DNA from: Dehalococcoidia bacterium
Lineage (GTDB): Bacteria; Chloroflexota; Dehalococcoidia; Lucifugimonadales; VXLM01
Direction: 5' to 3'
Assembly: GCA_965247555.1 (NCBI GenBank)
Contig: CBDFHR010000009.1
Coordinates: 1,604,060 to 1,668,059, forward strand
Length of the DNA stretch: 64,000 nucleotides
Positions 7,808-64,000 of the stretch are shown piece by piece. The position numbers and the translations under genes were made by a program. A model generated the notes under the pieces. The model ran no database searches. It had not been told where the DNA came from and was given only the letters and a program-made list of their open reading frames with translations. Each line of letters begins with the position of its first letter. Position 1 is the first letter of the stretch.

Positions 7808-8894
7808 CTACACCGGCAGCAGCTTGATGCACACGGGAGCGGGGACGTCGACCTCGTGGCCCGTCGGCTCCGGCATCCCGGTCTCCCGGTTGATGCGGTA
7901 GGTGAGGATGTTGCCGGTGTCCTGATTGGATACCAGCATGTATGTCCCCGAAGGGTCGATGGCGAAGTTGCGAGGAGTCTCGCCCCCGCTCGATACGTGG
8001 CCGACGAATGAAAGCCCGCCGGTGTCCTGGTCGATACTAAAGACGGCGATGCTGTCATGTCCACGATTGGAGCCGTACACGAACTCGCCGGACGGGGACA
8101 CGTGGATGTCGGCGCAGTGGTTGACGCCCTTGAAGTCGTCCGGCAGGGTCGTCACCGTCTCGATCTCGTTGAGCATCCCACGCAGGCCGTCGTAGTGCAT
8201 CGCGGTTATCGAGGAACCCATCTCGTTGAGGAGATAGGCGTACTTGCCGTTCGGATGAAAGGCGAAGTGGCGCGGCCCTCCCCCCGGCGGAGTGCGAGAC
8301 ATACGGCGATTCGGCCGGCGTGAGACTCCCGTCGCCGTGATTGAGCCTGTACGCCAACACCTTGTCGATCCCGAGGTCGGCGGCGAAGGCGAACATGTTG
8401 GTTGGATCGATATTGATCGAGTGCCCGTGAGGCCCCTCCTGACGCTCGGGATCGATGCTCGACCCCTCGTGCTGAGAGAAACCCGCAGCCTCTCCGAGAC
8501 TCCCGTCCTCCTGGACAGGGTATGACGCGACGCTCCCACTCCCGTAGTTGGCCAGCAAGACGTATCGGCTCGTCTGGTCAACTTCAACGTGACAAGGCCC
8601 CGTTCCTTCAGATGACCGTTCGTTCAGGAACGTCAATTCCCCCGTTCGCGAGTCTATCGAGTAGGCCCTCACCACTCCGGTCTTCATGGCCTCGAAGTCC
8701 GCGCACACCGCGTACAGGCTCTTGCCGGACGGAGCGATATCCAAGAACGACGGGTCATTGATTGCTCCGGTCGTGCCGACATGCTCTAGCGCTCCCGTCG
8801 CCATATCAAAGCGGTAGCAGTAGATGCCCTCTGACCCCAGGGACGTGTATGTGCCGATATATACGAGATACTCATTTGCCATCTTGCAGATCAC
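7808..8894 (-). CDS. lactonase, 7-bladed beta-propeller family (6-phosphogluconolactonase-like); frameshifted in this assembly
   Basis: ORFs 8055-8894 and 7808-8587 are the N- and C-terminal halves of one protein (...PYVSHSAGG | GPRHFAFHPNGKYAY...). The frame changes inside a C6 run at 8280-8285, and removing one base restores the frame. Confidence 0.8.
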
Positions 8895-9244
8895 CTCGAA
8901 GTTTCTCTCACCACAATGTGAGGAAATCGGGACGGTTTGTCAAATCGTGGGGATGGTGGTGGGAACTTTCTCTATAAGGATTGGCTTGGAGCTCTAGCGG
9001 AAACCGGATGGTTCGGGTCCAGTTGGGTGGGTCTGCCAAGACTGAATTGCGAACTTTTCGCTGGGAGGTCTTGATATAGGAAGTTGATCAGACGTTCCCG
9101 GCTAGCCCATACGAGCTTCCCGCTCTGAATGCGAGGGCGCAGGGGCAATCGCCGCCACGTGATGCGTTTGGCTCTCCCGGCGCGCGCTTTACAGGAAGCG
9201 GTCATCCGTCCTACCATGCAGACGCTACTTTGAGAGGGTAAGAC

Positions 9245-11223
9245 GTGACTACCGTCAGCCGCTACGCCGTCGAAGAGTTCAAGCACGGCGTCCGCCGAAC
9301 GCAGGACCTCAACGGTCCGGGAATGGAGAAGGAGGCGCGTCATGGTGAAGCCGAAGCTGGCCAGACGCGGTCCTGTGCGGAGTGCAGAACGGACATCTCA
9401 GACCGCCTTCCATATGCCCGCTACTGCATTGAGCATGGCACAGCACTGGCAAAGCAACGCCGATACGACGCCAAGGCCAAGGCGGCTCGCGCACCAAGGG
9501 CGTGCGCGGAGTGCGGGGCGGATATCTCAGTACGCCGCGGCAATGCACGCTACTGCGTCGAGCACAGCACTGTGCTGGCGGCGCAACGCCGCTACGACGC
9601 AAAGGCCAAGGAGGCCCGCGCGGCTGAGGAACGCCCGCCACGCGTGTGTAAGGAGTGTGGTGGGGAGATTAAGGGGCGGCATTTCAACGCCTGGTACTGC
9701 GCCGAGCACACCACGGCTGCCGCCGCCGCGGCGCGTCATGGCGGAGCCGAAGCCAGCCCGGAGCGGTCATGCGCGGAGTGCGGGGCGGACATCTCATACC
9801 GCCGACTCTCTGCCCGCTACTGTGTCGAGCACGGCGGGCCGCCGGCCAAAGCGCGCCGGTGGCGTGCCAAGGCGAAGACACCCCGCTCGCCAAGGGTGTG
9901 CGCGGAGTGCGCGACAAGTATCGAGGAGCGGCATTCCGCTGCTCGATACTGCATCGAGCACGGCACAACGACGGCGACACGTCGCCGCTACAGCGAGCAG
10001 GCCAGGGCGGGTCGCGCACTAAGGGCATGCGCAGAGTGTGGGAAGGACATCTCAGAGCGCCCCTGCAATTTCCACTACTGCGCCGAGCACGGCGGGCAGG
10101 CGAGCAACATGCGCCGCTATCTTGCCAAGCGCAAGGCGGGCACCCTACGTCCTACGCGGTCATGCGAGGAGTGTGGGATTGATATCTCAAGTAGGCATTT
10201 CAATGCCCGCTACTGCGACGAGCATGGTACGCCCCTGACGTGGAGCCGCCGCAACCGTAAGGCGGCCAAGGCGGACCCCACAGAGCGTCCGTGCAAAGAG
10301 TCAAGTGTGGGGCGGATATCTCAAATCGCCCCAGCAACGCCAACTATTGCGCTGAGCATGGCGTGCCCCTGACGTGGGGCCGCCGCAACCACGAGCGGGC
10401 TAAGGCTAGCCGTGCAGGACGGTCATGCGTGGAGTGCGGGTTGGACATCTCGGATCGCCGACGAAACGCTCGCTACTGCACCGAGCATGGTGGGGATGCG
10501 AATACGGAGCGCCGCTACCAGGTTGCCATCAAGGCGGCCCGCACAGGGAGGACGTGCGCGGAGTGCGGAGTAGATATCTCAGAGCAGGGAGGCAGTGCCT
10601 TGTATTGCGTTGAGCATGGCTCGTCCTTGGCGACGAGCCACCGCTACCTCGCTGCGGCAAAGGCGGGCCGCCCTGCTAAGGCATGCGCGGAGTGCGGAGC
10701 GGAAATCACAGAACGCCGCGGCAATGCCCGCTACTGCGCCGAGCACGGCGGGCAGACGGGCACAATCGCCCGCTACCGGGTTGTGGCACAAGCGGCCAGC
10801 TCACTGCGGTCATGCGCGGAGTGCGGAGCAAATATCGGGGAGCGCCCTCCGTCTGCCCACTACTGCGTCGAGCATGGCGGGCCAGCAGGCACGCGCCGAC
10901 GCTACCTCGCGACAGTGCGCGCCCACGAAACCGCGCAGACATTGAGGCAATCGGATGGAGGGCGCGCCGCCTTGCGGTCTCGCGCGCATTCTCGGCGCGC
11001 TGCAGGGAACACTGAGAATATCGCGAAGTTGACTGAGGGTGGGCTGAGACGCATTAGGGGCGGTGAGACGGTTCTCTGTGGGATATGCGAGCAGCCGATA
11101 CTCGATGTCGACGAATTCGAAATCGACCACATCCTCCCGATTACCAAGGGCGGAACGCACGAGTTAGAGAACCTGCAACCTGCGCATGCGATCTGTAACC
11201 GCCGCAAGGGGAATCGGATGTAG
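9245..11223 (+). CDS. 12 tandem CxxC...CxEH zinc-ribbon-like repeats with a C-terminal HNH endonuclease domain, split by a 5-nt insertion near 10301-10305
   Basis: ORFs 9245-10372 and 10291-11223 are in different frames but form one continuous repeat series. Each unit reads about R.CAECG.DIS.R...ARYC.EHG......RRY.AKAKA. The C-terminus is CGICEQPI...EIDHILPITKGGTHELENLQPAHAICNRRKGNR (HNH). The start is uncertain (GTG 9245 or ATG 9323). Confidence 0.8.
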
Positions 11224-11255
11224 TCGCCGCGTAACCAAGCTTCCTGCGAGCCACA

Positions 11256-11333
11256 TGGTGGACCCGACGAGAATCGAACCCGTGACCCTAAACTTCGTGA
11301 GAGAAGTACTCTGTCCACTGAGCTACCGGGGCC
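11256..11333 (-). tRNA. tRNA gene with encoded CCA; anticodon not confidently assignable by eye (CUC/Glu most likely if one base is missing)
   Basis: The reverse complement is GGCCCCGGTAGCTCAGTGGACAGAGTACTTCTCTCACGAAGTTTAGGGTCACGGGTTCGATTCTCGTCGGGTCCACCA. It has a canonical D arm and T arm (ACGGG-TTCGATT-CTCGT). The anticodon stem ACTTC/GAAGT encloses only 6 nt (TCTCAC). Confidence 0.7.
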
Positions 11334-54164: not shown

Positions 54165-54833
54165 CTAGGACGACGACTTGGTGCCGCGGAAGGGATGGAC
54201 CCAATCGGCGAGGGAGCGAGGGTTCCGGGACTGGACCCAGAGCCTGCCCCTGCCGGAGAACTCCATGATGATCTGGTCGGAGAAGAGGAACGAGCGGATT
54301 TTCGCGGCGCGAGTCAGCCGGTATTCGAGCGTCGAGTCCCAAGCGACGGCGTGGCCGTTGTCGACGATGTACGCGCCGTCCACTTCGATCTCTTGGATGT
54401 CGCCATAGGCGCTGAAGAACAGCGTCCCGGCGCCCGACACGCGGAGGATGAACATTCCCTCGTTAAAGAGACCTCGCAAGCCCTGGAAATCGGAGTTCGT
54501 CGACACACCGGGCGACGAGGCAAGATAAGCGCCCTTCTCCAGCAGCAGCTCCTCGCCGTCCATCTCGTACGCCATGATGTCGCCGGGCTGTCCCTGCGTG
54601 AGTCCGATGGTGCCCGGAGCGCCCTCCGCCTCGTAGGTGTTCTGGAAGAAGCTCTCGCCACCGAGAACCCTCCGGCTCAGACCCGACATGATGCCGCCTC
54701 TCACGGACGTCTCCGCCCGCATGTTGTCGGTCATCCAGGCCATCGCGCCCGACTCGGTGACCAACTGCTCACCGGGATTGAGGGTGACCTCCGCGAGGCT
54801 GTAGCTCGGCCGCGAGTGTATGAAATAGTCCAT
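54165..54833 (-). CDS. AIM24/TIGR00266 (DUF124) family protein, paralogue 1
   Basis: Contains L.PGE.....GAM.WM and SGEGL-type motifs shared with the two upstream paralogues. Confidence 0.75.
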   Translation of the reverse strand: MDYFIHSRPSYSLAEVTLNPGEQLVTESGAMAWMTDNMRAETSVRGGIMSGLSRRVLGGESFFQNTYEAEGAPGTIGLTQGQPGDIMAYEMDGEELLLEKGAYLASSPGVSTNSDFQGLRGLFNEGMFILRVSGAGTLFFSAYGDIQEIEVDGAYIVDNGHAVAWDSTLEYRLTRAAKIRSFLFSDQIIMEFSGRGRLWVQSRNPRSLADWVHPFRGTKSSS

Positions 54834-54835
54834 TA

Positions 54836-55522
54836 CTAGCTCTTCTCCGGGAGCAGTGGGCCGAGCGTCCTGCCGAACTCATCGGGATTGTGGCTCTGAA
54901 CGTAGACTCGACCGTACCCGCTGAAATGAAGTACGAGTCCCTCGCTGGTCAGGAATGAGGATACCCAGCTTCCGCCCGCCTTGCCGACGGAATATTCGAG
55001 CGAGTCCTCGAACGCCACCACGTGTCCAGTGTCGATGGTGAGCCCGCCCTTCACTTCCAACTCCGTGATCGTTCCGAAGGCGTTCACCAGTAGCGGCCCG
55101 ACGCCCTCGACGGTGAGGAACGACAGCGACTCGCCCGACAGCATACCCCGCAGTCCCTGGAACTGCGTGTCGATGTTCAGCTCGGGGGCGGAGCCGAGGT
55201 AGCTCCCGCCCGCGCAGACCCAGCGTGCGCTGCCGTCGCACTCTATGTGGGCCACCTGCCCTTGCAATATGGGAGCCAGGCCGATCTCGGCGTCCCGGTC
55301 GTCGACCACGCTGTAACGCGAGAAGAAGAAATTCTCCCCCGCGATCATCCTCTTGATGCCTGACATGATGCCGCCGCTGCTGCGACTGCGCGTCGTCACG
55401 TCGATATCGACGTTGTCGGACGCGCGGAACATCGACCCCGCCTCGGATACGAACTCCTCCGACGGGCGGAGGTGAACGAGGGCTGAGCCGAACGCGCCGT
55501 TGTCAGCGATCTCTATGTGCAT
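54836..55522 (-). CDS. AIM24/TIGR00266 (DUF124) family protein, paralogue 2
   Basis: ATG 55522 (MHIEIADNGAFGSALVHLRPSEEFVSEAGSMF...) is preferred. The longer track ORF would overlap paralogue 3. Confidence 0.72.
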   Translation of the reverse strand: MHIEIADNGAFGSALVHLRPSEEFVSEAGSMFRASDNVDIDVTTRSRSSGGIMSGIKRMIAGENFFFSRYSVVDDRDAEIGLAPILQGQVAHIECDGSARWVCAGGSYLGSAPELNIDTQFQGLRGMLSGESLSFLTVEGVGPLLVNAFGTITELEVKGGLTIDTGHVVAFEDSLEYSVGKAGGSWVSSFLTSEGLVLHFSGYGRVYVQSHNPDEFGRTLGPLLPEKS

Positions 55523-55557
55523 CTTAGAGCGATATCCCCTATTGCCAAACCGATGTC

Positions 55558-56214
55558 CTATCTCGTGAAGGGCGTCAGCCACGAGGCCAGCCCCGGCATG
55601 GTACGTGTTTGCAAATAAATCGTGCCCGTGCCAGAGAACTTCATTACGAGGCCCTCCCCGGACAGCAGCGTGCTCTTGATCCCGCCCATGCCCTGTATGG
55701 AGTAGCTCAGGGACGGCTCCCAAGCGACCACGTGGCTCGTATCGACGATGAACGAGCCGTCGATCTTCTTATCGATGATCGAGCCGTAGGCGTTGAAAAA
55801 CAGCTCTCCTCTGCCGCTGCACTCCATGAGGAACAGCCCCTCGCCGGAGAAGAGCGCGCGCGCCCCGCCGAACTTGGTGCTCAGCTCCACGCCGGGAGTA
55901 CAGGCCATGAACGAACCACCCGTGAGCATGAGCGAGTCGCCGTTCAGCGTCCTCTGCACGACGCTTCCGGGCTGCGCGGGAGAGAAGGCGATCCCGCCGC
56001 CACTGTCAGTGGAGTACTCGCCTACGAAGAGCGACTCTCCACCCGTAAACTTGCGGATGAGGGCGCTTAAGAAGCCGCCGAGCAGACGCGCCTTCGACTG
56101 AATGTCGGAGTCCATCCACGCCATCGAGCCGCCCTCGGCTATGAACTGCTCGCCCGGACCCAACTGCACTCGCAGTTGCCCGTAGTCGGGATTGCCGACA
56201 ATGTCGATCTGCAT
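55558..56214 (-). CDS. AIM24/TIGR00266 (DUF124) family protein, paralogue 3
   Basis: ATG 56214 (MQIDIVGNPDYGQLRVQLGPGEQFIAEGGSMAWMD...). Confidence 0.75.
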   Translation of the reverse strand: MQIDIVGNPDYGQLRVQLGPGEQFIAEGGSMAWMDSDIQSKARLLGGFLSALIRKFTGGESLFVGEYSTDSGGGIAFSPAQPGSVVQRTLNGDSLMLTGGSFMACTPGVELSTKFGGARALFSGEGLFLMECSGRGELFFNAYGSIIDKKIDGSFIVDTSHVVAWEPSLSYSIQGMGGIKSTLLSGEGLVMKFSGTGTIYLQTRTMPGLASWLTPFTR

Positions 56215-56470
56215 AGGGAAATCGTATCGTCGATTCCATGCTTGTGTCAATCGGATTTCCGACCTGTAAGCCTGTATTCAATTCTGTATTCAATATGGTA
56301 CGCGTTCCTCTGGCAGTCACCATAGGACCATCCCGCCGCACCGGCGAAAGCCAATATCCGGAGTGGTCTGTCATCATGAGTGACACCTTTCCCGAAACCT
56401 CCCACAAGATTGGGCCAAAATCCAGTCTGGTACCCTTCGTTCTCCTTCTGGTAATCTGTCATGCGGAGAG

Positions 56471-57463
56471 ATGTCTGACATGACCAACACCTACGACGAC
56501 TCGATTGTGATCGACGGATTGAACGTGAGCAACTGGGACTCGGATCGGGCCCTTGAGGGGATATATGCCGGTCGGGTCACGGCGTTCAACGCCACGATAG
56601 CCATATTTGAAAAATTCCACGAGGCGATGGACAACATTGCCGGATGGTACGAGCGCCTCGACCGCTGGTCGGACCGCCTGACACCCATCACCTCGGTCGA
56701 CGACATCCGCGAAGCGAAGCGCACCGGCAAGAGCGGGGTCGTTTTCGGCTGGCAGAACGCGTCGCCCATCGAGAACAACCTCGACCACCTGGAAACATTC
56801 CACAAGGCCGGCGTGCGGGTTATTCAGATCACGTACAACGAGCGCAACCTCCTGGGAAACGGGTGCTATGAGCGTACCGACGACGGGCTGAGCAATTTTG
56901 GCGTGGATGCCGTCAAGGAGATGAACAGGCTGGGCATCCTAATCGACCTCTCCCATGTCGGGGACAGAACGACCCTGGAGACGGCGGAGCTGTCCGACAA
57001 GCCCGTCGCGGCGACCCACGCCAACGCACGGTCGTTCGTCGACCATCCGCGCAACAAGACCGACGACGCCCTGAAGCTCATCGCCGATAAGGGCGGCATC
57101 ATCGGCGCGACCTGCTGGCCGCCGTTCCTCCCCAATAAGTTTGAATCGACCCTGCGCGACTATGGCGACGCCATCGACGACATGGTCGAGCGTGTCGGCA
57201 TCGACCACGTCGGCATCGGAACCGACTACACCATCGACCGAACGAAGGAGTGGTTCGACGTGCTCCTGTCGCAGCAGGGCACGAAGTGGAACCCCCGCCG
57301 GCTCAATTACCCCGACACCGTGACGCACCCCGTCGGCATCGAGACACCCGACAAGTTCCCATCCATCGCCGACGAACTGGCCAGGAGAGGCTACACGTCA
57401 GAACACATCACGAAGGTGCTGGGCGGAAACTTCATGAGGGTCTTCGGGGAGGTCTGGGGCTGA
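56471..57463 (+). CDS. membrane (renal-type, M19) dipeptidase family protein
   Basis: Contains IDGLNVSNW, GVRVIQITYNERNLLGNGC, LGILIDLSHVG and HVGIGTDY. Confidence 0.85.
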   Translation: MSDMTNTYDDSIVIDGLNVSNWDSDRALEGIYAGRVTAFNATIAIFEKFHEAMDNIAGWYERLDRWSDRLTPITSVDDIREAKRTGKSGVVFGWQNASPIENNLDHLETFHKAGVRVIQITYNERNLLGNGCYERTDDGLSNFGVDAVKEMNRLGILIDLSHVGDRTTLETAELSDKPVAATHANARSFVDHPRNKTDDALKLIADKGGIIGATCWPPFLPNKFESTLRDYGDAIDDMVERVGIDHVGIGTDYTIDRTKEWFDVLLSQQGTKWNPRRLNYPDTVTHPVGIETPDKFPSIADELARRGYTSEHITKVLGGNFMRVFGEVWG

Positions 57464-57638
57464 GGTCCGGTCGATTTGCAATCGCATTCCACGGCTTTAG
57501 GCTGTGGCGCACCCCGCTAACAGGTCCTTAACTGAGCGCTAACCGTGCGTTAATTCAATCGGCTTGCACGTAGGGTACGGTTGGATGTCGGGGATGACCC
57601 CAGCGAGACCAATTCACCTATAGGGAGCCACACTTCGT

Positions 57639-58394
57639 ATGAAACAAGACCCGAGGCGACGCATCGAAATCGAGGGGGCGTACAACGTCCGCGACATCGG
57701 CGGGTATGAGACGGCTGACGGGCGGATGACTCGTTGGCAGACGTTCCTGCGGGCGGACAATGTGAGCACGCTGCCACAGCACTCACAGGACACGCTCACG
57801 TCGACCTTCGGAATACGAACGGTGATAGACCTCCGTCGGCAGGACGAGATCGACGGGCAGCCGGATAACGTACTCGCTCGGTCACCGCGCGTGCGGTACC
57901 ACAACGTCGATATCGTAGGTGACATGGTGTTCGATCAGATCGAGAGTACGGAGCCGCGAGAGAGGATTCATGCGAGCTACCGCAACATGCTCGACCGGCA
58001 AGGTTGCATGTTTGGCGAGGCGCTGCGCGTACTTGCGCAGCCGGGGGCGCTTCCGGCCATGTACCACTGCATGGGCGGTCAGGACCGGACGGGTCTCGTC
58101 TCCGCCATGCTCTTGAGTCTGGCCGGTGTGCCGACGGAGACCATTGCGGCCGACTACACGCTGACGGCGGAGTATCGCGTCGATGCGTACTTGGGCCCCA
58201 ACTCGATAGAGCCGGAAGCCGATCCCGCCGACTACACCGTAGAGGCATACCGCGCACGTAACTGCCCACAGGAAGTCATGCTCGACACGCTGGGGTATCT
58301 GGAAGAGCAGTACGGGGGAGTGGAAGCCTACGTTCGTTCGGTGGGCGTGACGGCCGAGGATATCTCTGCGTTGCGCGCGGCTCTCGTCGACTAG
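57639..58394 (+). CDS. tyrosine-protein phosphatase (Y_phosphatase3-like)
   Basis: NVRDIGGY near the N-terminus and the CX5R P-loop HCMGGQDRTG. Confidence 0.85.
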   Translation: MKQDPRRRIEIEGAYNVRDIGGYETADGRMTRWQTFLRADNVSTLPQHSQDTLTSTFGIRTVIDLRRQDEIDGQPDNVLARSPRVRYHNVDIVGDMVFDQIESTEPRERIHASYRNMLDRQGCMFGEALRVLAQPGALPAMYHCMGGQDRTGLVSAMLLSLAGVPTETIAADYTLTAEYRVDAYLGPNSIEPEADPADYTVEAYRARNCPQEVMLDTLGYLEEQYGGVEAYVRSVGVTAEDISALRAALVD

Positions 58395-58488
58395 CAGCCT
58401 CGCATTTAGGGGCCGTCCGACCTCTCTTCTCATGTGCGGGGATCACGTCCGGTTTGAAGATTCCGACATACTGTGACACCATATCGAC

Positions 58489-59397
58489 ATGAGAATCGGT
58501 GAATTTGAAGTCGTCGAACCGCTACCGGAGTTGGAGGACGCCATCGCCATAGCGATGCTCCGACCATGGGTCGACGTGGGAAGCTCCGGGACCCTCACCC
58601 TGAAGATCCTCGAACGCCAGATGACAGCGACCGAGCTAGGCCGACTGGCCCGTCCCGGCAAGTTCCTCGACTTCACTCGCGAGCGCCCCGTTATGAAGTG
58701 GGTCGACGGCATCCGATCGCTCGATATCCCGAACAGCGTCATCAACTATGCCCGCGATCCGGCGGCAGGGCGGGACTTCCTCTTTCTCCATCTCCGAGAA
58801 CCGCACATGTATGGGGAAGACTACTGCGACACCGTCGTCGAGCTGGTAAAGCGCTTCAACGTGGTCGAATACTGCCGCATCGGCGGCATGTACGACCAGG
58901 TGCCTCATACGCGACCGCTCAAGATCACCGGTAGCCTGCCGGACAAGCACCTCGACCGCCTTACCGGGTTCCTTGCCCCGAGACGAAGCACCTACCAGGG
59001 GCCGACCAGCATCGTCAACCTCATTGGAGAGGGACTGGAAGAGGCGGGCATCGAATCGTCCAGCCTCATGGTGCATCTTCCGCACTATGTCCAGCTCGAT
59101 GAAGACTACATGGCCACGGCCCGCCTTCTCGAAGCCCTGTGCGGGATGTACAACCTGCCGACCTTTCTTGCCAACAAAACGCGCGGCGAACGGCAGTACG
59201 AGCAAATCGAACGCGCCCTTGCTAGCAACAGCGAGGTCCGCGGCCAGATCGCTCGGATGGAGCAGACCTACGACGAGGAGATCCCCCAAACGCCTGACGA
59301 AGCCCCCGACGAGGTCGCCCTGCCGGAGGACATGGAGAATTTCCTCCGCGATGCCCTCAGGGGTCTGGACGACAAGGAGTCGCAGGGCAAGGAGTGA
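58489..59397 (+). CDS. PAC2 (proteasome assembly chaperone 2-like) family protein
   Basis: Overall pattern (PELEDAIAIAMLRPWVDVGSSG..., YQGPTSIVNLIGE, an acidic C-terminal tail) as in bacterial PAC2-family proteins. Confidence 0.6.
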   Translation: MRIGEFEVVEPLPELEDAIAIAMLRPWVDVGSSGTLTLKILERQMTATELGRLARPGKFLDFTRERPVMKWVDGIRSLDIPNSVINYARDPAAGRDFLFLHLREPHMYGEDYCDTVVELVKRFNVVEYCRIGGMYDQVPHTRPLKITGSLPDKHLDRLTGFLAPRRSTYQGPTSIVNLIGEGLEEAGIESSSLMVHLPHYVQLDEDYMATARLLEALCGMYNLPTFLANKTRGERQYEQIERALASNSEVRGQIARMEQTYDEEIPQTPDEAPDEVALPEDMENFLRDALRGLDDKESQGKE

Positions 59398-59580
59398 AGA
59401 ACTCCCAAGAGTCCGTGTCCGGCAAAATCACAGAATCGTGTGATGCCGCAGTGGGATGTTTGTAATACACTTCGAGTGTAAGGTAGAATGCCCGTTGAGG
59501 TGCTTGACACATTCGCGGGCGGATACTATCGTTAGACTTGGCCCCGAAACCAAGGACGGACCACAAAAGGAGGTCATCCA

Positions 59581-59769
59581 ATGGATAAGATTGGGATGCT
59601 GGGTATAGGAGTCATTCTTGCCATACTTGGCATAATTCTCCGATTGAACCTGATCGACTGGCTCATCGACCTTTCCGGACTCATCCTGCTTGTCATCGGC
59701 GTCGTTCTCATCGTACTCGGCCTGATCAAGATATTCACCGGGAGTGGGAGTTCTCAGACCGACTACTAG
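59581..59769 (+). CDS. small two-helix membrane protein
   Basis: SD AAGGAGG. 62 aa with two hydrophobic segments. A plausible promoter TTGACA-N17-TATCGT lies at 59504-59532. Confidence 0.55.
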   Translation: MDKIGMLGIGVILAILGIILRLNLIDWLIDLSGLILLVIGVVLIVLGLIKIFTGSGSSQTDY

Positions 59770-59954
59770 GCACTCCTTCAAGACCGATTGAACCGGGGGA
59801 ACTTCGCGTTCGACAGGTGAATGGCACGAACGGATTTCGCACGTGGTTTGTCCGTTCTAGGCCCGTCGAAGCACGACTAGTCGATCTATTCAAGGTATAA
59901 TAGTTGACGACCGGAAGCCCCGGCTTCAGAAAAGAGAGATCGGGAGGAAGAACC

Positions 59955-60695
59955 ATGGGCATGCTATCGAGGATGTCGACCGTCGTGAAGGCGAAGATGA
60001 ACCGCCTGATCGACAACGCCGAGGACCCGAAGGAGACCCTAGACTACGCGTACGAGAAGCAGCTTGAGATGCTGCGCGACGTCAAGCGCGGCGTCGTGGA
60101 AATGGTCACGGCGAAGCGTCGTCTTGAGCTTCAGGCAAAGAAGGTTCGGGAGAACGTGAGTAGGCTGGACGACCAGGCCCGCAATGCACTGGGTATGGGG
60201 CGAGAGGACCTGGCGCGCGTCGCCCTCGAACGCAAGCAATCGGCCCTGATGGAGCTAGACGGTCTCGACCAGCAGGTCGTCGACATGGAACACGAGCAGG
60301 AAAAGCTGACCGCGGCGGAGCAGCGCATTCAGGCCAAGGTGCAGGCGTTCCGCAATAAGAAAGAGGTCATCAAGGCCCAGTACAGCGCAGCCCAGGCGCA
60401 GGTGCGGATCGGGTCGGCTCTCTCCGGACTCTCCGAGGAGATGGGCGATGTCTCGCTGGCGGTTGAACGAGCAGAGCACAAGACCGAGTCGATGAGGGCC
60501 AGGGCCGGCGCGATCGACGAGCTCGCGGCGGCCGGCGTACTGGACGACCCGCTCGGGCTCGGCGGCGGACAGGACGATATCGACAGGGAGCTCAACAAGC
60601 TCTCTGCTTCGGCCAGCGTCGAGTCGGAATTGGCCGCTCTCAAGGCGTCCACCGGCACCGCCCAGCCGAAACAGCTTTCGGGAGGCCAGTCATGA
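59955..60695 (+). CDS. pspA: PspA/IM30 family protein
   Basis: ATG 59955 follows GGGAGGA. MGMLSRMSTVVKAKMNRLIDNAEDPKETLDYAYEKQLE is the canonical PspA N-terminus. The rest is coiled-coil. Confidence 0.88.
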   Translation: MGMLSRMSTVVKAKMNRLIDNAEDPKETLDYAYEKQLEMLRDVKRGVVEMVTAKRRLELQAKKVRENVSRLDDQARNALGMGREDLARVALERKQSALMELDGLDQQVVDMEHEQEKLTAAEQRIQAKVQAFRNKKEVIKAQYSAAQAQVRIGSALSGLSEEMGDVSLAVERAEHKTESMRARAGAIDELAAAGVLDDPLGLGGGQDDIDRELNKLSASASVESELAALKASTGTAQPKQLSGGQS

Positions 60696-60970
60696 TTATC
60701 CGAATTCTCACCGAGGGTCAGTGGCGGTTCCCAGCCGCACTGCTCGACAACCTCAACGAAATCGACCACACCATCGTCGACGTCTTGGCCGAGGACGACG
60801 AGGGAGAGTTTCGCGACCTCCTTGCTAAGATGATCGCGATGGTCAAGGAAAACGGCTCTCCCCTCGCACTCGAAGAGTTGGAGGAGTCGGACGCCATCAT
60901 CCCCGAGCCGGACATCACCATCGAAGAGGCGAAAGAGCTGTTCGTGGGCACGGGCGTCGTACCGGGGTAG
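60692..60970 (+). CDS. PspA-associated protein (PspAA-like)
   Basis: 4-nt overlap with pspA. MIIRILTEGQW... is followed by an acidic tail, as in PspAA partners of actinobacterial-type pspA operons. Confidence 0.6.
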   Translation: MIIRILTEGQWRFPAALLDNLNEIDHTIVDVLAEDDEGEFRDLLAKMIAMVKENGSPLALEELEESDAIIPEPDITIEEAKELFVGTGVVPG

Positions 60971-61051
60971 TTTAGGGGTCCTATAACGTTGTGGGCCCGG
61001 CCAGCCGTGCAGTATTCTGTGAATTGACAGCAAGATGAGTCGAGGGTGGTC

Positions 61052-61219
61052 ATGAAAGAGCATGATGGGCGAAACACCGGCGCCGTGAACGGCGCGGGCG
61101 CGAAAATGCCTCGCAAGCGACCGGCCACTCAGCGGCCTACAAGGGAACAGATCCGGAAGGCTACGAAGATGGCCGTCTATCTCCACCGGGAAGCCCTTCA
61201 GGAGCTGGAACGTCTCTAG
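61052..61219 (+). CDS. putative ribbon-helix-helix antitoxin (55 aa; below ORF-track cutoff)
   Basis: Translated by hand: MKEHDGRNTGAVNGAGAKMPRKRPATQRPTREQIRKATKMAVYLHREALQELERL*. The K.TKMAVYLHREALQELERL segment resembles an RHH beta-strand plus helix. It lies directly upstream of doc. Confidence 0.45.
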   Translation: MKEHDGRNTGAVNGAGAKMPRKRPATQRPTREQIRKATKMAVYLHREALQELERL

Positions 61220-61259
61220 GCCAGCGTACTGGTTCCCTACGGTTGACGATGTAACCGAA

Positions 61260-61766
61260 GTGATGTCCGTACTGGCGTCGGAGATGTACCCCGACTACCC
61301 CGACCCGACGCCGGAGTTCCACTTCCTTGGGGGAGACGCCGGCCGGGGCCTTCTCGCTTCTGCCCTTGCCCAGCCAGCTCAGACGTTTTCTGGAACCTAC
61401 CTCAACCGCACCATCCCCGATAAGGCCGCCGTGCTGTTGATTTCTATGATCAAGAACCATCCGTTTGTGGACGGCAACAAACGAATCGCGCTCACTACGA
61501 CCACGGTATTTCTTTCACTCAATGGATGGCTGTTCTATGCGAACCGTGACGACGCGGTGGCGGAGTGCCTGCGCGTCGCCAGCACGGCCGGGAACGTTGA
61601 AAAGGGACCGGTGGCCTCGTGGATACGCAAGAGGTCCATCAAGTGGGAACGCTATCTCGGCATGTCGAAGCGCGAACGCACGAATTGGCGCCGAATCGTC
61701 GTGCCCGCCTCTGAGCAGGCGCTGAGATTCTCCTACCTGTTACGAGAAATGAGGAGTCTGGAGTAG
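61260..61766 (+). CDS. doc: Fic/Doc family toxin (death-on-curing-like); true start uncertain
   Basis: Fic motif HPFVDGNKRIALTT. Doc-like sequence (YWFPTVDDVTEV) continues upstream of the GTG 61260 start in the same frame, without a canonical start codon. Confidence 0.75.
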   Translation: MMSVLASEMYPDYPDPTPEFHFLGGDAGRGLLASALAQPAQTFSGTYLNRTIPDKAAVLLISMIKNHPFVDGNKRIALTTTTVFLSLNGWLFYANRDDAVAECLRVASTAGNVEKGPVASWIRKRSIKWERYLGMSKRERTNWRRIVVPASEQALRFSYLLREMRSLE

Positions 61767-61850
61767 TTATGTCGACCTCCGCCGTGGGAACTTGTACGTG
61801 GATTGCTCCTGCCTTGGAATACCCACGAGTGGCGGGAATCCATTTCCCCT

Positions 61851-62741
61851 TCATTCCTCCAAGAACTCGAAGAGCTCGGCTACCAACTCTTCCGGGCGCT
61901 CCTCAGGGATGAAGTGGCCGCAATCAAGCGGCTTCCCGCGCACGTCGTGGGCGCGTTCACGCCAGACGGAGAGCATGTCGAGGCTCTTACCCGTCTGCCA
62001 GCCTGGACGCTTTCTCATGTCCGCGCCCCACAGCAAGAGGACAGGACACTCCAGCTTCCGCCCACGGTCTACCTCGTCGTGCTGAAGGTCGAGCGCGACG
62101 CCCCGGTAGTCCAGGCAGGTCGCGCGCACGGTATCGGAGTTGTCGAAGCAGCGAAGGTACTCGGCGTAGGCCTCATCGGTGATCGACCCCTCCATGGCCG
62201 TCCAGCGCTCCAGGAGGAAGTCGAGGTACACCTTCGCGTTGCTGCCTATGAGCGTCTCCGGCAGGGGCGAGGGCTGCCGCATCAGGTGCCAGTGAAACCA
62301 CGCGAATGCGAGATCGGCGTCCATGTTCTCGAACGCCGCCTGCGACGGCACAACGTCGAGGCACGTGAAGCTCCTCACCCGTGCCGGATGGTCGAGGGCC
62401 ATCCGATGACCGACACGAGCGCCCCGGTCATGACCCACCACGTGGAATGACTCGAAATCGAGTTGCCGCATGACCTCGACCTGGTCGTTGGCTGTGGTGC
62501 GCTTGCAGTACACGCTCAGGTCATCATCCGGGGCAGGCGGCTTGTCGCTGTCGCCGTATCCCCGCAGGTCGGGCACGACGACGGTGTACCGCTCGGCGAG
62601 GGCAGGAGCTACCTTGTGCCACATCACATGCGTCTGCGGGTAGCCGTGCAGGAGCAGCAGCGGCGGACCGCTTCCCCCGTACCGCAAGTTGATGCCGACG
62701 CCGTTGGCGGTGAGGTTGGTGTGTGTGAAGCCTTCGAACAT
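61851..62741 (-). CDS. alpha/beta hydrolase, haloacetate dehalogenase/epoxide hydrolase-like
   Basis: Contains LLLLHGYPQTHVMWHKVAP, PDLRGYGDS and an Asp nucleophile motif VVGHDRGARV. Confidence 0.8.
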   Translation of the reverse strand: MFEGFTHTNLTANGVGINLRYGGSGPPLLLLHGYPQTHVMWHKVAPALAERYTVVVPDLRGYGDSDKPPAPDDDLSVYCKRTTANDQVEVMRQLDFESFHVVGHDRGARVGHRMALDHPARVRSFTCLDVVPSQAAFENMDADLAFAWFHWHLMRQPSPLPETLIGSNAKVYLDFLLERWTAMEGSITDEAYAEYLRCFDNSDTVRATCLDYRGVALDLQHDEVDRGRKLECPVLLLWGADMRKRPGWQTGKSLDMLSVWRERAHDVRGKPLDCGHFIPEERPEELVAELFEFLEE

Positions 62742-63114
62742 GATTTACTCTCCGTCACTGGCAGCACAGAGTAGGCTACCCACTTGGACAAAATCAAGAA
62801 CCCTTTATGTTGAGGTTCGTTCTGAACCTCTAGGGAGCCTTTCCACAGTGGCCTCAGGCCGTCGACCAGCCTTTCGGACAGGGCCTCGGCCTGCGATATG
62901 ATCTGCCGCACCGCCAAGTCCTCCTCCGGCTACTCCTCTACGGTCCAGGGCCCCCCCGTGGGTCTTCCTGTCATACCCTCTTGTCTCCCATGGAGGAGGG
63001 GATCACATGTTCGCACTCTTGCTGGTTCTGTTTCATTTCCGAGGTAACCTATAGTATGAAGTCCTAGGGCACTGTGCCCCATGCTCTACCAGCGACGGTA
63101 CAGGAGAGCAGAAC

Positions 63115-64000
63115 ATGGACGGTCCAACTGCAGGAATCCATCCTTTGATGTGCACATGGAAAGACTGCGGCCGACGCAACTACACGAAGGGTCTGTGCCA
63201 GATGCACTACCAGCGACAGTACAGAGGGCAGGACATGGACGCGCCTGCCAGAGGAGACCTGCCCACAATATGTACGTGGGAAGGCTGCAAGCGACCGCAT
63301 GCCCATAAGGGACTGTGCTCAGTGCACTACCGGCGCCAGCGCGAGGGTAGCAACATGAACCCGCCCGCAAGAGGAGATTACCCCCAAACGTGTACTTGGG
63401 GGAGCTGCAACCGACCCTATGAGGCGAAAGGTCTGAGTAAGCTACACTACAACCGCCAGCGCGAGGGCAGCGACATGGACATGCCTGTGCGAGGCTCGAC
63501 TTGTACGTGGACGGACTGCGAGCGGCCCAATTACACGAAAGGGCTGTGCCAGATGCACCACCATCGCAAGCGTGATGGCCGCGGCATGGACCCGCCACCT
63601 GTGCGGGCTGTGCCCTGTTCATGGCCCGGCTGTGAGCGGCCCTGTCGTGTCACCAAATCCCTGTGCCATATACACTACGCCCGCAAGCGTGATGGCCGCG
63701 ACATGGACCGACCCGTAAGAGGAGACTCCCCCCCAACGTGTACTTGGGGGAACTGCAACCGACCCCATGAGGCGAAAGGTCTGTGTCGGCTACACTACAC
63801 CCGCTGGCGCGAGGGCAGCGACATGGACGCACCTGTGCGGGGCTCGACATGCACGTGGACGGACTGCGAACGGCCCCATTACACGAAAGGGCTGTGCCAG
63901 ATGCACCACCATCGCAAGCGTGATGGCCGCGACATGGACGCGCCACCTGTGCGGACTGTGCCCTGTTCATGGCCCGGATGTGAGCGGCCCCGTCATGGCA
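63115..64000 (+). CDS. Cys/His-rich tandem-repeat protein (C-x-W-x2-C-x-R-P-x3-K-G-L-C-x2-H-Y-x-R-x-R-x-G-x-D-M-D units), 3' end outside window
   Basis: The frame (codon positions 63115, 63118...) is open from the TAG at 63052-63054 to the window end. It is not in the ORF track because no stop is reached. There are 7 complete units and 1 partial. The first ATG is at 63115, and a degenerate frameshifted unit lies at 63064-63114. Confidence 0.75.
   Translation, partial: MDGPTAGIHPLMCTWKDCGRRNYTKGLCQMHYQRQYRGQDMDAPARGDLPTICTWEGCKRPHAHKGLCSVHYRRQREGSNMNPPARGDYPQTCTWGSCNRPYEAKGLSKLHYNRQREGSDMDMPVRGSTCTWTDCERPNYTKGLCQMHHHRKRDGRGMDPPPVRAVPCSWPGCERPCRVTKSLCHIHYARKRDGRDMDRPVRGDSPPTCTWGNCNRPHEAKGLCRLHYTRWREGSDMDAPVRGSTCTWTDCERPHYTKGLCQMHHHRKRDGRDMDAPPVRTVPCSWPGCERPRHG

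Follow-up and report, generated by a model that had tools for sequence, protein, structure and literature searches.

A candidate HNH_3-type endonuclease gene with a long, rearranged array of predicted CCCH zinc modules in a Dehalococcoidia genome

In this study, we analyzed a stretch of 64,000 nucleotides (nt; hereafter the window) from contig CBDFHR010000009.1 of a Dehalococcoidia bacterium (assembly GCA_965247555.1), and we found that its right edge encodes a long array of Cys/His units on the plus strand. We consider it likely that the region 63115-64000 is the 5′ part of a free-standing gene for an HNH_3-type endonuclease of the His-Me-finger kind, with an N-terminal array of zinc modules of the CCCH type (three Cys and one His as ligands). 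The reading frame matches profiles of phage HNH endonucleases, it evolves under purifying selection, and its only close relative is collinear with it and ends in an HNH_3 domain.

According to the mechanism that we propose, each module would consist of a Cys-x4-Cys knuckle followed by a Cys-x2-His pair at the start of a nine-residue basic helix (HYxRxRxG), and a conserved G-x-DMD-A-P linker would connect successive modules. The array would be the DNA-binding part of the enzyme and would keep a nuclease domain of low specificity on a long target, which is the role of the NUMOD, helix-turn-helix (HTH), and AP2 modules in other HNH_3 homing endonucleases. The array itself has changed in two ways, namely by a duplication of 348 base pairs (bp), after which the upstream copy drifted, and by truncation of a 5′ unit, whose linker Met was reused as the start codon. 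Furthermore, comparison with other genomes suggests that the gene and its leader of about 190 bp may move together as a cassette between sites.

Reading frame and coding strand

In the plus frame, a TAG stop codon at 63052-63054 is followed by 946 nt without any stop (63055-64000), up to the last base of the window, just as a preliminary description of this DNA had stated. The first ATG of the frame is at 63115-63117, and an AGGAGA sequence is found seven bases upstream (63102-63107). The coding sequence (63115-64000) has 295 codons and is cut by the window end. Against phage protein family profiles, the frame matched three families named "HNH endonuclease": phrog_5351 (E = 8.1e-89, five stretches), phrog_19978 (E = 4.4e-38, six stretches), and phrog_1271 (E = 1e-35). 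In addition, 78 homologs of the fragment were found in a collection of 5.8 billion proteins. Because of the phrog_5351 match and these homologs, a chance resemblance is excluded. Furthermore, comparison with the ortholog described below showed 27, 29, and 47 substitutions at the first, second, and third codon positions, and a ratio of nonsynonymous to synonymous substitution rates (dN/dS) of 0.39. Thus, the third-position excess and the low dN/dS show that the plus frame is a gene under purifying selection.

The list of open reading frames (ORFs) contains only antisense ORFs in this region, at 63086-63622 and 63650-63970 of the minus strand, and both exist at the positions reported before. It could be argued that these are the real genes or, as repeats can be mis-assembled, that the 348-bp repeat described below is an assembly artefact. 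However, we found no homology support for the minus strand, since neither ORF has a match in Pfam, and the G + C content at third codon positions (GC3) is 0.54-0.57 in the antisense ORFs but 0.685 in the plus frame and 0.79-0.83 (about 0.8) in the neighbouring host genes. It is also the plus frame that matches phrog_5351 (E = 8e-89). The antisense ORFs were therefore rejected as genes. Meanwhile, the two copies of the repeat show 39 differences over 327 positions without loss of the frame, a pattern that would not arise from mis-assembly of identical reads. Both ideas are hardly credible in our opinion.

The ortholog and the predicted nuclease tail

A scan of species-representative genomes returned one close relative, contig CAXXCN010000003.1 of a Dehalococcoidia metagenome-assembled genome (referred to as L001). 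Its positions 10007-11284 form an ORF of 425 amino acids (aa) that is collinear, unit by unit, with units 1-5 of the window, at 83% nucleotide and 75% amino acid identity. The L001 ORF does not have the three-unit duplication of the window. It includes eight units and then an HNH_3 domain (PF13392; 33.6 bits against a cut-off of 24.8, E = 2.9e-8) with the motif EEVHHKNGVKDDNRLENLELW, which follows the pattern HH..N..N. No significant sequence match to this nuclease tail was found in the PDB. Judged from the ortholog, the window gene would also end in an HNH_3 nuclease. Since L001 has eight units and no duplication, the window protein probably includes about 11 units plus the nuclease, or about 540 aa in total, if the orthology extends beyond the window end.

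Most of the 78 homologs also carry a C-terminal HNH_3 domain (PF13392), and others carry Endonuclease_7 (PF02945) or HNH (PF01844). There are homologs in which no nuclease domain can be recognized, including P0028 (11 units, 511 aa), P0029, and P0006. By analogy with them, the window gene might encode a zinc-module protein without nuclease, acting only in DNA binding or regulation. However, the only close relative, collinear by unit, ends in HNH_3, a nuclease domain is present in most homologs, and several of the nuclease-less matches come from short contigs and may be truncated. Thus, we regard a nuclease-free protein as very unlikely.

The zinc module

The frame encodes seven complete units, followed by the initial 15 residues of unit 8, in agreement with the at least 7.5 units of the preliminary description, and both unit peptides quoted there are present in the translation. 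The first Cys codons of units 1-8 start at 63151, 63271, 63391, 63502, 63616, 63739, 63850, and 63964, and the modules are 37-41 aa long. The consensus of the window units is P-x-T-C-T-W-x-x-C-x-R-P-x-x-T-K-G-L-C-x-x-H-Y-x-R-x-R-x-G-x-D-M-D-x-P-V-R. Units 1 and 2 (63142-63381, 40 aa each) are orthologous to units 1 and 2 of L001 (hereafter V1, V2, and so on), with DNA identities of 89% and 81%. Units 3-5 (63382-63729) and units 6, 7, and the beginning of unit 8 (63730-64000) form the two copies of the super-repeat. The three unit flavours distinguished earlier apply to units 3-8, and units 1 and 2 represent two further types.

The spacing C-x4-C-x9-C-x2-H is exact in five of the seven complete window units and in 222 of the 262 units taken from the window, L001, and the 78 homologs. 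Unit 5 has x10 spacing, with a one-codon insertion that brings an extra Cys (RPCRVTKSLC). In unit 3, zinc ligand 3 has been lost by a Cys to Ser change (TGT to AGT, 63436-63438) within KGLSKLHY (63427-63450), which confirms the loss noticed before. All other predicted ligands are intact. In the same 262 units, the conserved nonligand positions are G5, R8, P9, G14, L15, Y20, R22, R24, G26, and the stretch D28-M-D-A-P32, and the most variable ones are 2-4, 7, 10-11, 17-18, 21, 23, 25, and 27. Positions 17, 21, 23, 25, and 27 are mostly Ser, Arg, Asn, Gln, or Lys, namely polar or basic residues, and most differences between orthologous or paralogous units of this locus fall on them. In other words, the variation is found at polar positions of the helix, between invariant Arg residues. 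The fragment has a pI of 9.3, and Lys plus Arg outnumber Asp plus Glu in every unit. Meanwhile, the linker after DMDAP varies in length from 3 to 10 residues.

An AlphaFold model, based on an alignment of 50 sequences, reached a mean predicted local distance difference test (pLDDT) score of 82.9 and a predicted template modeling score of 0.41. The pLDDT was 88-95 in the individual units and 72-81 in unit 3, which is without Cys3, and the linkers scored low. As modeled, the array resembles beads on a string. We read the secondary structure of the unit from the secondary-structure string of the model: two short strands lie beside the C-x4-C knuckle, and Cys3 is directly followed by a nine-residue helix whose first turn includes the His. 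The predicted arrangement of ligands is treble-clef-like. A single-unit AlphaFold model built from the seven window units had a pLDDT of 60 and was left out of the fold search. Based on these ligand patterns, we infer that the units are CCCH zinc modules that are predicted to bind zinc.

Duplication, decay, and truncation of the array

Tandem Repeats Finder reported a repeat with a period of 348, 1.8 copies, 90% matches, and no indels at 63353-63994 (score 1088), and an independent repeat finder placed the unit pairs 3/6, 4/7, and 5/8 all at an offset of 348 bp. The tandem duplication of a three-unit super-repeat is thus real. It had been described as recent, with the block 63481-63650 recurring almost base for base. 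The block does recur, but its two copies are 91% identical (155 of 170), and the whole duplicated stretch is 88% identical, so the earlier wording was overstated. The copies differ at 9-12% of their bases, and orthologous units of the window and L001 differ at 4-21%. Given this similar degree of divergence, the duplication is about as old as the split between the window and L001 lineages, and not recent.

The unit-by-unit matrix of DNA identities also showed which copy has changed. Unit 7 is 96% identical to V4 of L001 but only 94% to its paralog unit 4, which likewise speaks against a recent duplication, and unit 4 is 91% identical to V4. Unit 6 is 83% identical to V3 and 88% to unit 3, and unit 3 itself is 79% identical to V3. 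For unit 8, the available 46 nt are 93% identical to V5 and 89% to unit 5, and the whole unit 5 is 80% identical to V5. Because identity to V3, V4, and V5 is higher in units 6-8, it is the downstream copy that has been conserved and the upstream copy (units 3-5) that has drifted. The upstream copy carries both the Cys to Ser change of unit 3 and the one-codon insertion of unit 5.

The similarity between the copies starts at about 63355, in the linker preceding unit 3. In addition, the linker after unit 5 (RPVRGDSPPT) is like the linker after unit 2 (PPARGDYPQT) and unlike the L001 linker after V5. Both observations fit unequal recombination between the conserved stretches that code for G-x-DMD-x-P, by which the 348-bp block (linker plus units 3-5) was probably duplicated.

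At the 5′ end, the second half of an older unit (..LCPMLYQRRYR..) lies out of frame at 63064-63114 on the plus strand. Within it, 63072-63103 shares 88% identity with the stretch of unit 1 that encodes GLC..HYQRQYR (63193-63224), in another frame. A frameshifted relic unit before the ATG had been noted previously; the relic is indeed out of frame, but it is half a unit and not a whole one. Through a 1-nt indel, the R-G codons of the relic became the ribosome-binding site AGGAGA, and the Met of the relic's DMD linker now serves as the start codon of the gene. Since L001 shows exactly the same relic state, the 5′ truncation is old and predates the split of the two genomes.

Integrity of the gene

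Several observations weigh against a complete enzyme with a fully working array. First, unit 3 is without one of its ligands. Second, dN/dS between the duplicated copies is 0.72 and their differences are spread evenly over the codon positions (14, 13, and 12), so that part of the array is under weak constraint. Third, the variable length of the linkers argues against a strictly periodic reading of DNA. Fourth, the 3′ end of the gene lies beyond the window edge at 64000, and no protein in the 5.8-billion collection is more than 46% identical to the fragment, so that an intact full-length product has not been seen. Fifth, the gene of another zinc-module array in the window (9245-11223, described below) is frameshifted into two overlapping ORFs by five inserted nucleotides (TCAAG, about 10299-10303) that lie between "CKE" and "CGADIS". 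Finally, our literature and structure searches found no experiment or solved structure for the module. The fragment protein was also not matched in scans of viral contigs and of metagenome contigs.

The gene may be decaying or split, in which case the array would be a remnant, interrupted just past the window, and no full-length enzyme would be made. The Cys loss in unit 3, the insertion in unit 5, the dN/dS of 0.72 between the duplicates, the 5-nt insertion in the other array gene, and the lack of a full-length match in the protein collection are all in line with this idea. In addition, a protein of 193 aa (P0026) on a 1.88-Mb contig includes two units plus HNH_3, and its first residue is the Met of an internal linker. 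With 75% identity, P0026 is as close to the C-terminus of L001 as the window N-terminus is to L001. It may come from a short gene in another genome, or it may be the tail of the window gene, called as a gene of its own. However, the window frame stays open over 946 nt, although such a repeat would easily be frameshifted, its dN/dS of 0.39 against the ortholog comes with a third-position excess, and its remaining ligands are all intact. The intact genes of the window and L001 also start at a linker Met, and P0026 is perhaps a short complete gene elsewhere. We keep the decaying gene as an unlikely yet serious alternative, mainly because P0026 may be the tail of the window gene, and we prefer the reading of an intact gene for an HNH_3-type endonuclease.

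The module family and its relatives

To estimate the abundance of the module, a profile of the seven window units was used as a query against 1.84 billion representative proteins (clusters at 50% identity). We found 8,940 proteins at E ≤ 1e-3 and 1,748 at E ≤ 1e-10. In the 218 best-scoring members, a sample biased to high scores, the number of units per protein ranged from 1 to 13-14, with a mode of 3-4, and only 11 of the 218 had at least eight. The partner domains include HNH_3, zf-His_Me_endon, HNH, Endonuclease VII, GIY-YIG, and Mrr_cat together with a ResIII helicase, and their only common property is action on DNA. For instance, P0090 (1141 aa) has an Mrr-type nuclease and a ResIII/DEAD helicase, followed by 11 C-terminal modules of a variant type (CPxxMDDGxxCGRPxxAxGMCxxH, DUF5763). 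It matches the PADLOC models of type IIG and type I restriction, and its architecture indicates that the module is also used in restriction-like enzymes. Meanwhile, neither the window fragment nor the L001 ortholog has a match in PADLOC, and membership in a known defence system was rejected.

Tblastn against phage genomes found genes annotated as HNH endonuclease or endonuclease VII in phages of Gordonia, Mycobacterium, Arthrobacter, and Microbacterium, as well as "Cys-rich domain" proteins of Bacillus phage 0305phi8-36. A Foldseek search of predicted viral structures found the same phage proteins, with E values as low as 4e-11, together with some repeat proteins of giant viruses. Together with the homologs and the phrog profiles, these matches bear out the earlier suggestion that the modules are of the nuclease-associated Cys/His type known from HNH endonucleases of actinobacteria and their phages. 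For example, Gordonia phage ClubL gp149 and Mycobacterium phage MosMoris gp49 share the module and the order of domains, with the modules first and the nuclease last. The actinophage proteins have one to four units, whereas the window protein has at least eight, probably 11, and its gene lies in a chromosomal, nonprophage region of a Chloroflexota-like genome. Our literature searches found no experimental study of these Cys-rich-repeat HNH and endonuclease VII proteins of actinophages. Thus, the locus is a long member of a known but uncharacterized nuclease family.

Searches of Pfam and NCBIfam with the fragment gave nothing useful. The closest models, Zf_WRKY19 (PF24906) and DUF5763 (PF19067), likewise describe short tandem C-x4-C...C-x2-H modules, but they span 24-39 residues, without the part that forms the helix and the linker (HYxRxRxGxDMDAP). 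The fragment did not match either of them even at E = 10. Several homologs score above the Pfam cut-off, such as P0003 (34.8 bits), P0079 (40.9 bits), and P0090 (47.8 bits for DUF5763). Literature searches on Zf_WRKY19, DUF5763, CCCH plus HNH in phages, and Cys-rich mycobacteriophage proteins returned nothing specific to the module. One paper (PMC11855218) deals with a different HNH protein that has CxxC fingers.

Possible function of the array

We propose that the array binds DNA, because all partner domains act on DNA and the array is basic (pI 9.3). In a classification of His-Me-finger nucleases, the homing endonucleases of the HNH_3 group are described as typically having tandem DNA-binding modules that confer specificity (PMC5714182). 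By analogy, the CCCH units may take the place of these specificity modules. The I-HmuI-type homing endonucleases with HNH_3/zf-His_Me_endon domains (PDB 1u3e) belong to the same nuclease family (PF13392) as the L001 ortholog. They likewise pair a small nuclease with tandem binding units, and the gene described here is also free-standing and located at a variable site. However, the I-HmuI type uses NUMOD and HTH modules, whereas predicted zinc fingers are found here, and the nuclease tail of L001 has no sequence match among solved structures.

A more specific and rather doubtful possibility is that the CCCH units form a natural modular array for reading DNA, a bacterial and phage counterpart of the zinc-finger nucleases. 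Engineered zinc-finger nucleases follow the same design principle, that is, a finger array fused to a nuclease. Each unit would then contact a few base pairs through helix positions 17, 21, 23, 25, and 27, and block duplication, decay of units, and 5′ truncation could retarget a mobile nuclease to new sites.

Meanwhile, the modules might not read sequence at all, but set a spacing or measure a distance like a ruler, make contacts between proteins, or clamp DNA without specificity. For instance, the linker zinc finger of I-TevI is a distance determinant that sets the distance of cleavage. That finger is also part of a modular phage homing endonuclease, but it is single, of the C4 type, in a GIY-YIG enzyme, and unrelated in sequence to the window module. 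The variable linker length is compatible with such a role, and no significant likeness to a solved DNA-binding finger was seen (best E values of 3e-3 in Foldseek and 0.07 in phmmer). However, the copy number of 1-14, the shuffling of modules among five nuclease and helicase types, the basic character of the units, and the variation focused on polar helix positions between invariant Arg residues speak for sequence recognition. The C-terminal end of P0090, where its array is located, is also a plausible place for target recognition. We think that modules without sequence reading are improbable, though such a role deserves consideration, and DNA binding by the array is the function that we favor.

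Sequence searches of the PDB with the fragment and with the unit profile gave no significant match (best E 0.07-0.4), and the best Foldseek hit among solved structures was not significant either (E = 3e-3, probability 0.66). The top PDB matches by sequence and by fold, all with nonsignificant E values (0.003-0.4), were C2H2 arrays of WT1, KLF, Sp1, and CTCF bound to DNA. These eukaryotic arrays are also tandem rows of small fingers with a conserved linker, and their knuckle P-x-x-C-[ST]-W-x-x-C-x-[RK]-R is alike. In the window, the knuckle at the start of the units, P-x-x-C-T-W-x-x-C-x-R-[RP] (63142-63180 and others), resembles the C-x4-C knuckle of Sp1/KLF/WT1, for example PFMCTWSYCGKRF. This likeness may reflect either convergence or distant homology. 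C2H2 fingers have H-x3-H at the end of the helix, whereas the present modules are CCCH, with ligands 3 and 4 at the start of the helix, and their linker is variable. The classical C2H2 finger (C-x2-4-C-x12-H-x3-5-H) was rejected for these units, as the position of a second His (position 23) is variable and the pattern is C-x4-C-x9-C-x2-H.

The family is abundant (about 8,940 clusters) and its members are routinely labelled "HNH endonuclease" in actinophage genomes, while for its repeat module we found no dedicated Pfam model, solved structure, or experimental study. The present locus is a good entry point, as its array is among the longest, the expansion can be dated and oriented with the help of an unduplicated ortholog, and a close relative shows other nuclease genes at the same chromosomal site. 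In addition, the expansion, decay, and truncation of the array are directly readable here. If DNA binding by the modules is modular, they would provide a natural and compact scaffold for nuclease targeting, and if they read DNA, they would be a new programmable recognition scaffold with about 38 aa per unit, found in about 8,900 protein clusters. If modular binding is false, the locus still offers a clear example of how a repeat array turns over in a mobile nuclease gene of Chloroflexota.

Genomic context and mobility

The neighbouring genes encode a formamidase, a solute-binding protein, AIM24, an M19 dipeptidase, a phosphatase, PAC2, PspA, Fic, and an alpha/beta hydrolase. This is an ordinary chromosomal region, and no phage genes were found in the neighbourhood. 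Exact-protein look-ups with the neighbouring genes at 61851-62741, 60692-60970, and 57639-58394 gave no match. The PAC2 protein (58489-59397) matched exactly and led to a metagenome contig of 9,967 bp (L003). Positions 1-8240 of L003 align to 54418-62823 of the window at 93.8% identity, and then the similarity ends. In place of the CCCH-array gene, L003 encodes a 342-aa protein (8388-9416) with C-x2-C..DIS..C-x2-C modules plus Endonuclease VII, and a second consecutive Endonuclease VII-like ORF follows at about 9403-9900. The modules of the former are of the same type as those of the window array at 9.2-11.2 kilobases (kb; tblastn E = 1e-11). Thus, replacement at the same site is seen among close relatives. 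Since L003 holds two genes of the Endonuclease VII type there, the site downstream of the hydrolase collects different zinc-module nuclease genes.

The situation in L001 is different. There, the gene and its leader of about 190 bp lie between unrelated genes, and no neighbours are shared within 10 kb. The leader (62926-63114 of the window, plus strand) is about 85-88% identical to 9821-10006 of L001, although the flanking genes differ. To its left, 62824-62925 forms the left edge of the variable segment and is shared with neither L003, whose alignment ends at 62823, nor L001, whose similarity starts at about 62926. In addition, GC3 is 0.69-0.72 in both array genes of the window (63115-63999 and 9245-11223) versus 0.79-0.83 in pheS, pspA, and the hydrolase gene, and this lower value suggests that both were acquired from elsewhere. 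Based on the site replacement in L003, the cassette in unrelated context in L001, and the lower GC3, we infer that the gene and leader behave as a mobile, free-standing nuclease cassette of the homing type.

The leader is at least as conserved against L001 (85-88%) as the coding part (83%). It includes a conserved hairpin, CCCTCTTGTCTCC-loop-GGAGGAGGGG, at about 62975-63000, of which the loop differs from that of L001, and a TATAGT box at 63050-63055. The leader may be a promoter, an autoregulatory site, or the end of the cassette. It has no match in Rfam, and its consensus fold, based on just the two sequences of the window and L001, shows no compensatory changes. Furthermore, no second copy of the leader was found in the window, L001, or L002, its conservation does not extend to the upstream region of P0001, a more distant homolog, and a search for its hairpin in metagenomes gave no match.

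The alignment with L003 also showed that the Fic/DOC gene of the window (61260-61766) has no called gene in the aligned part of L003 (6507-7110), where it may be degraded or simply uncalled.

A second array in the window

The other array gene lies at 9245-11223 on the plus strand. It encodes about 12 units of 43 aa with the spacing C-x2-C-x13-C-x2-H (consensus CAECGxDISxRxxNARYCxEHG), followed by an HNH domain (PF01844). In view of its frameshift, it may be a pseudogene or contain a sequence error. Homology between the units of the two arrays was rejected (hhalign probability 0.05), and thus, as proposed in the preliminary description, this genome carries two different types of long zinc arrays. 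In addition, a tRNA-like element is found at 11259-11332 on the minus strand, 36 bp past the stop codon of this HNH gene. ARAGORN labelled it as "tRNA-???", without assigning an anticodon, and the Rfam tRNA model gave 28.2 bits, slightly less than its gathering score of 29. The element is perhaps a tRNA of damaged or unusual form that adjoins a mobile nuclease gene.

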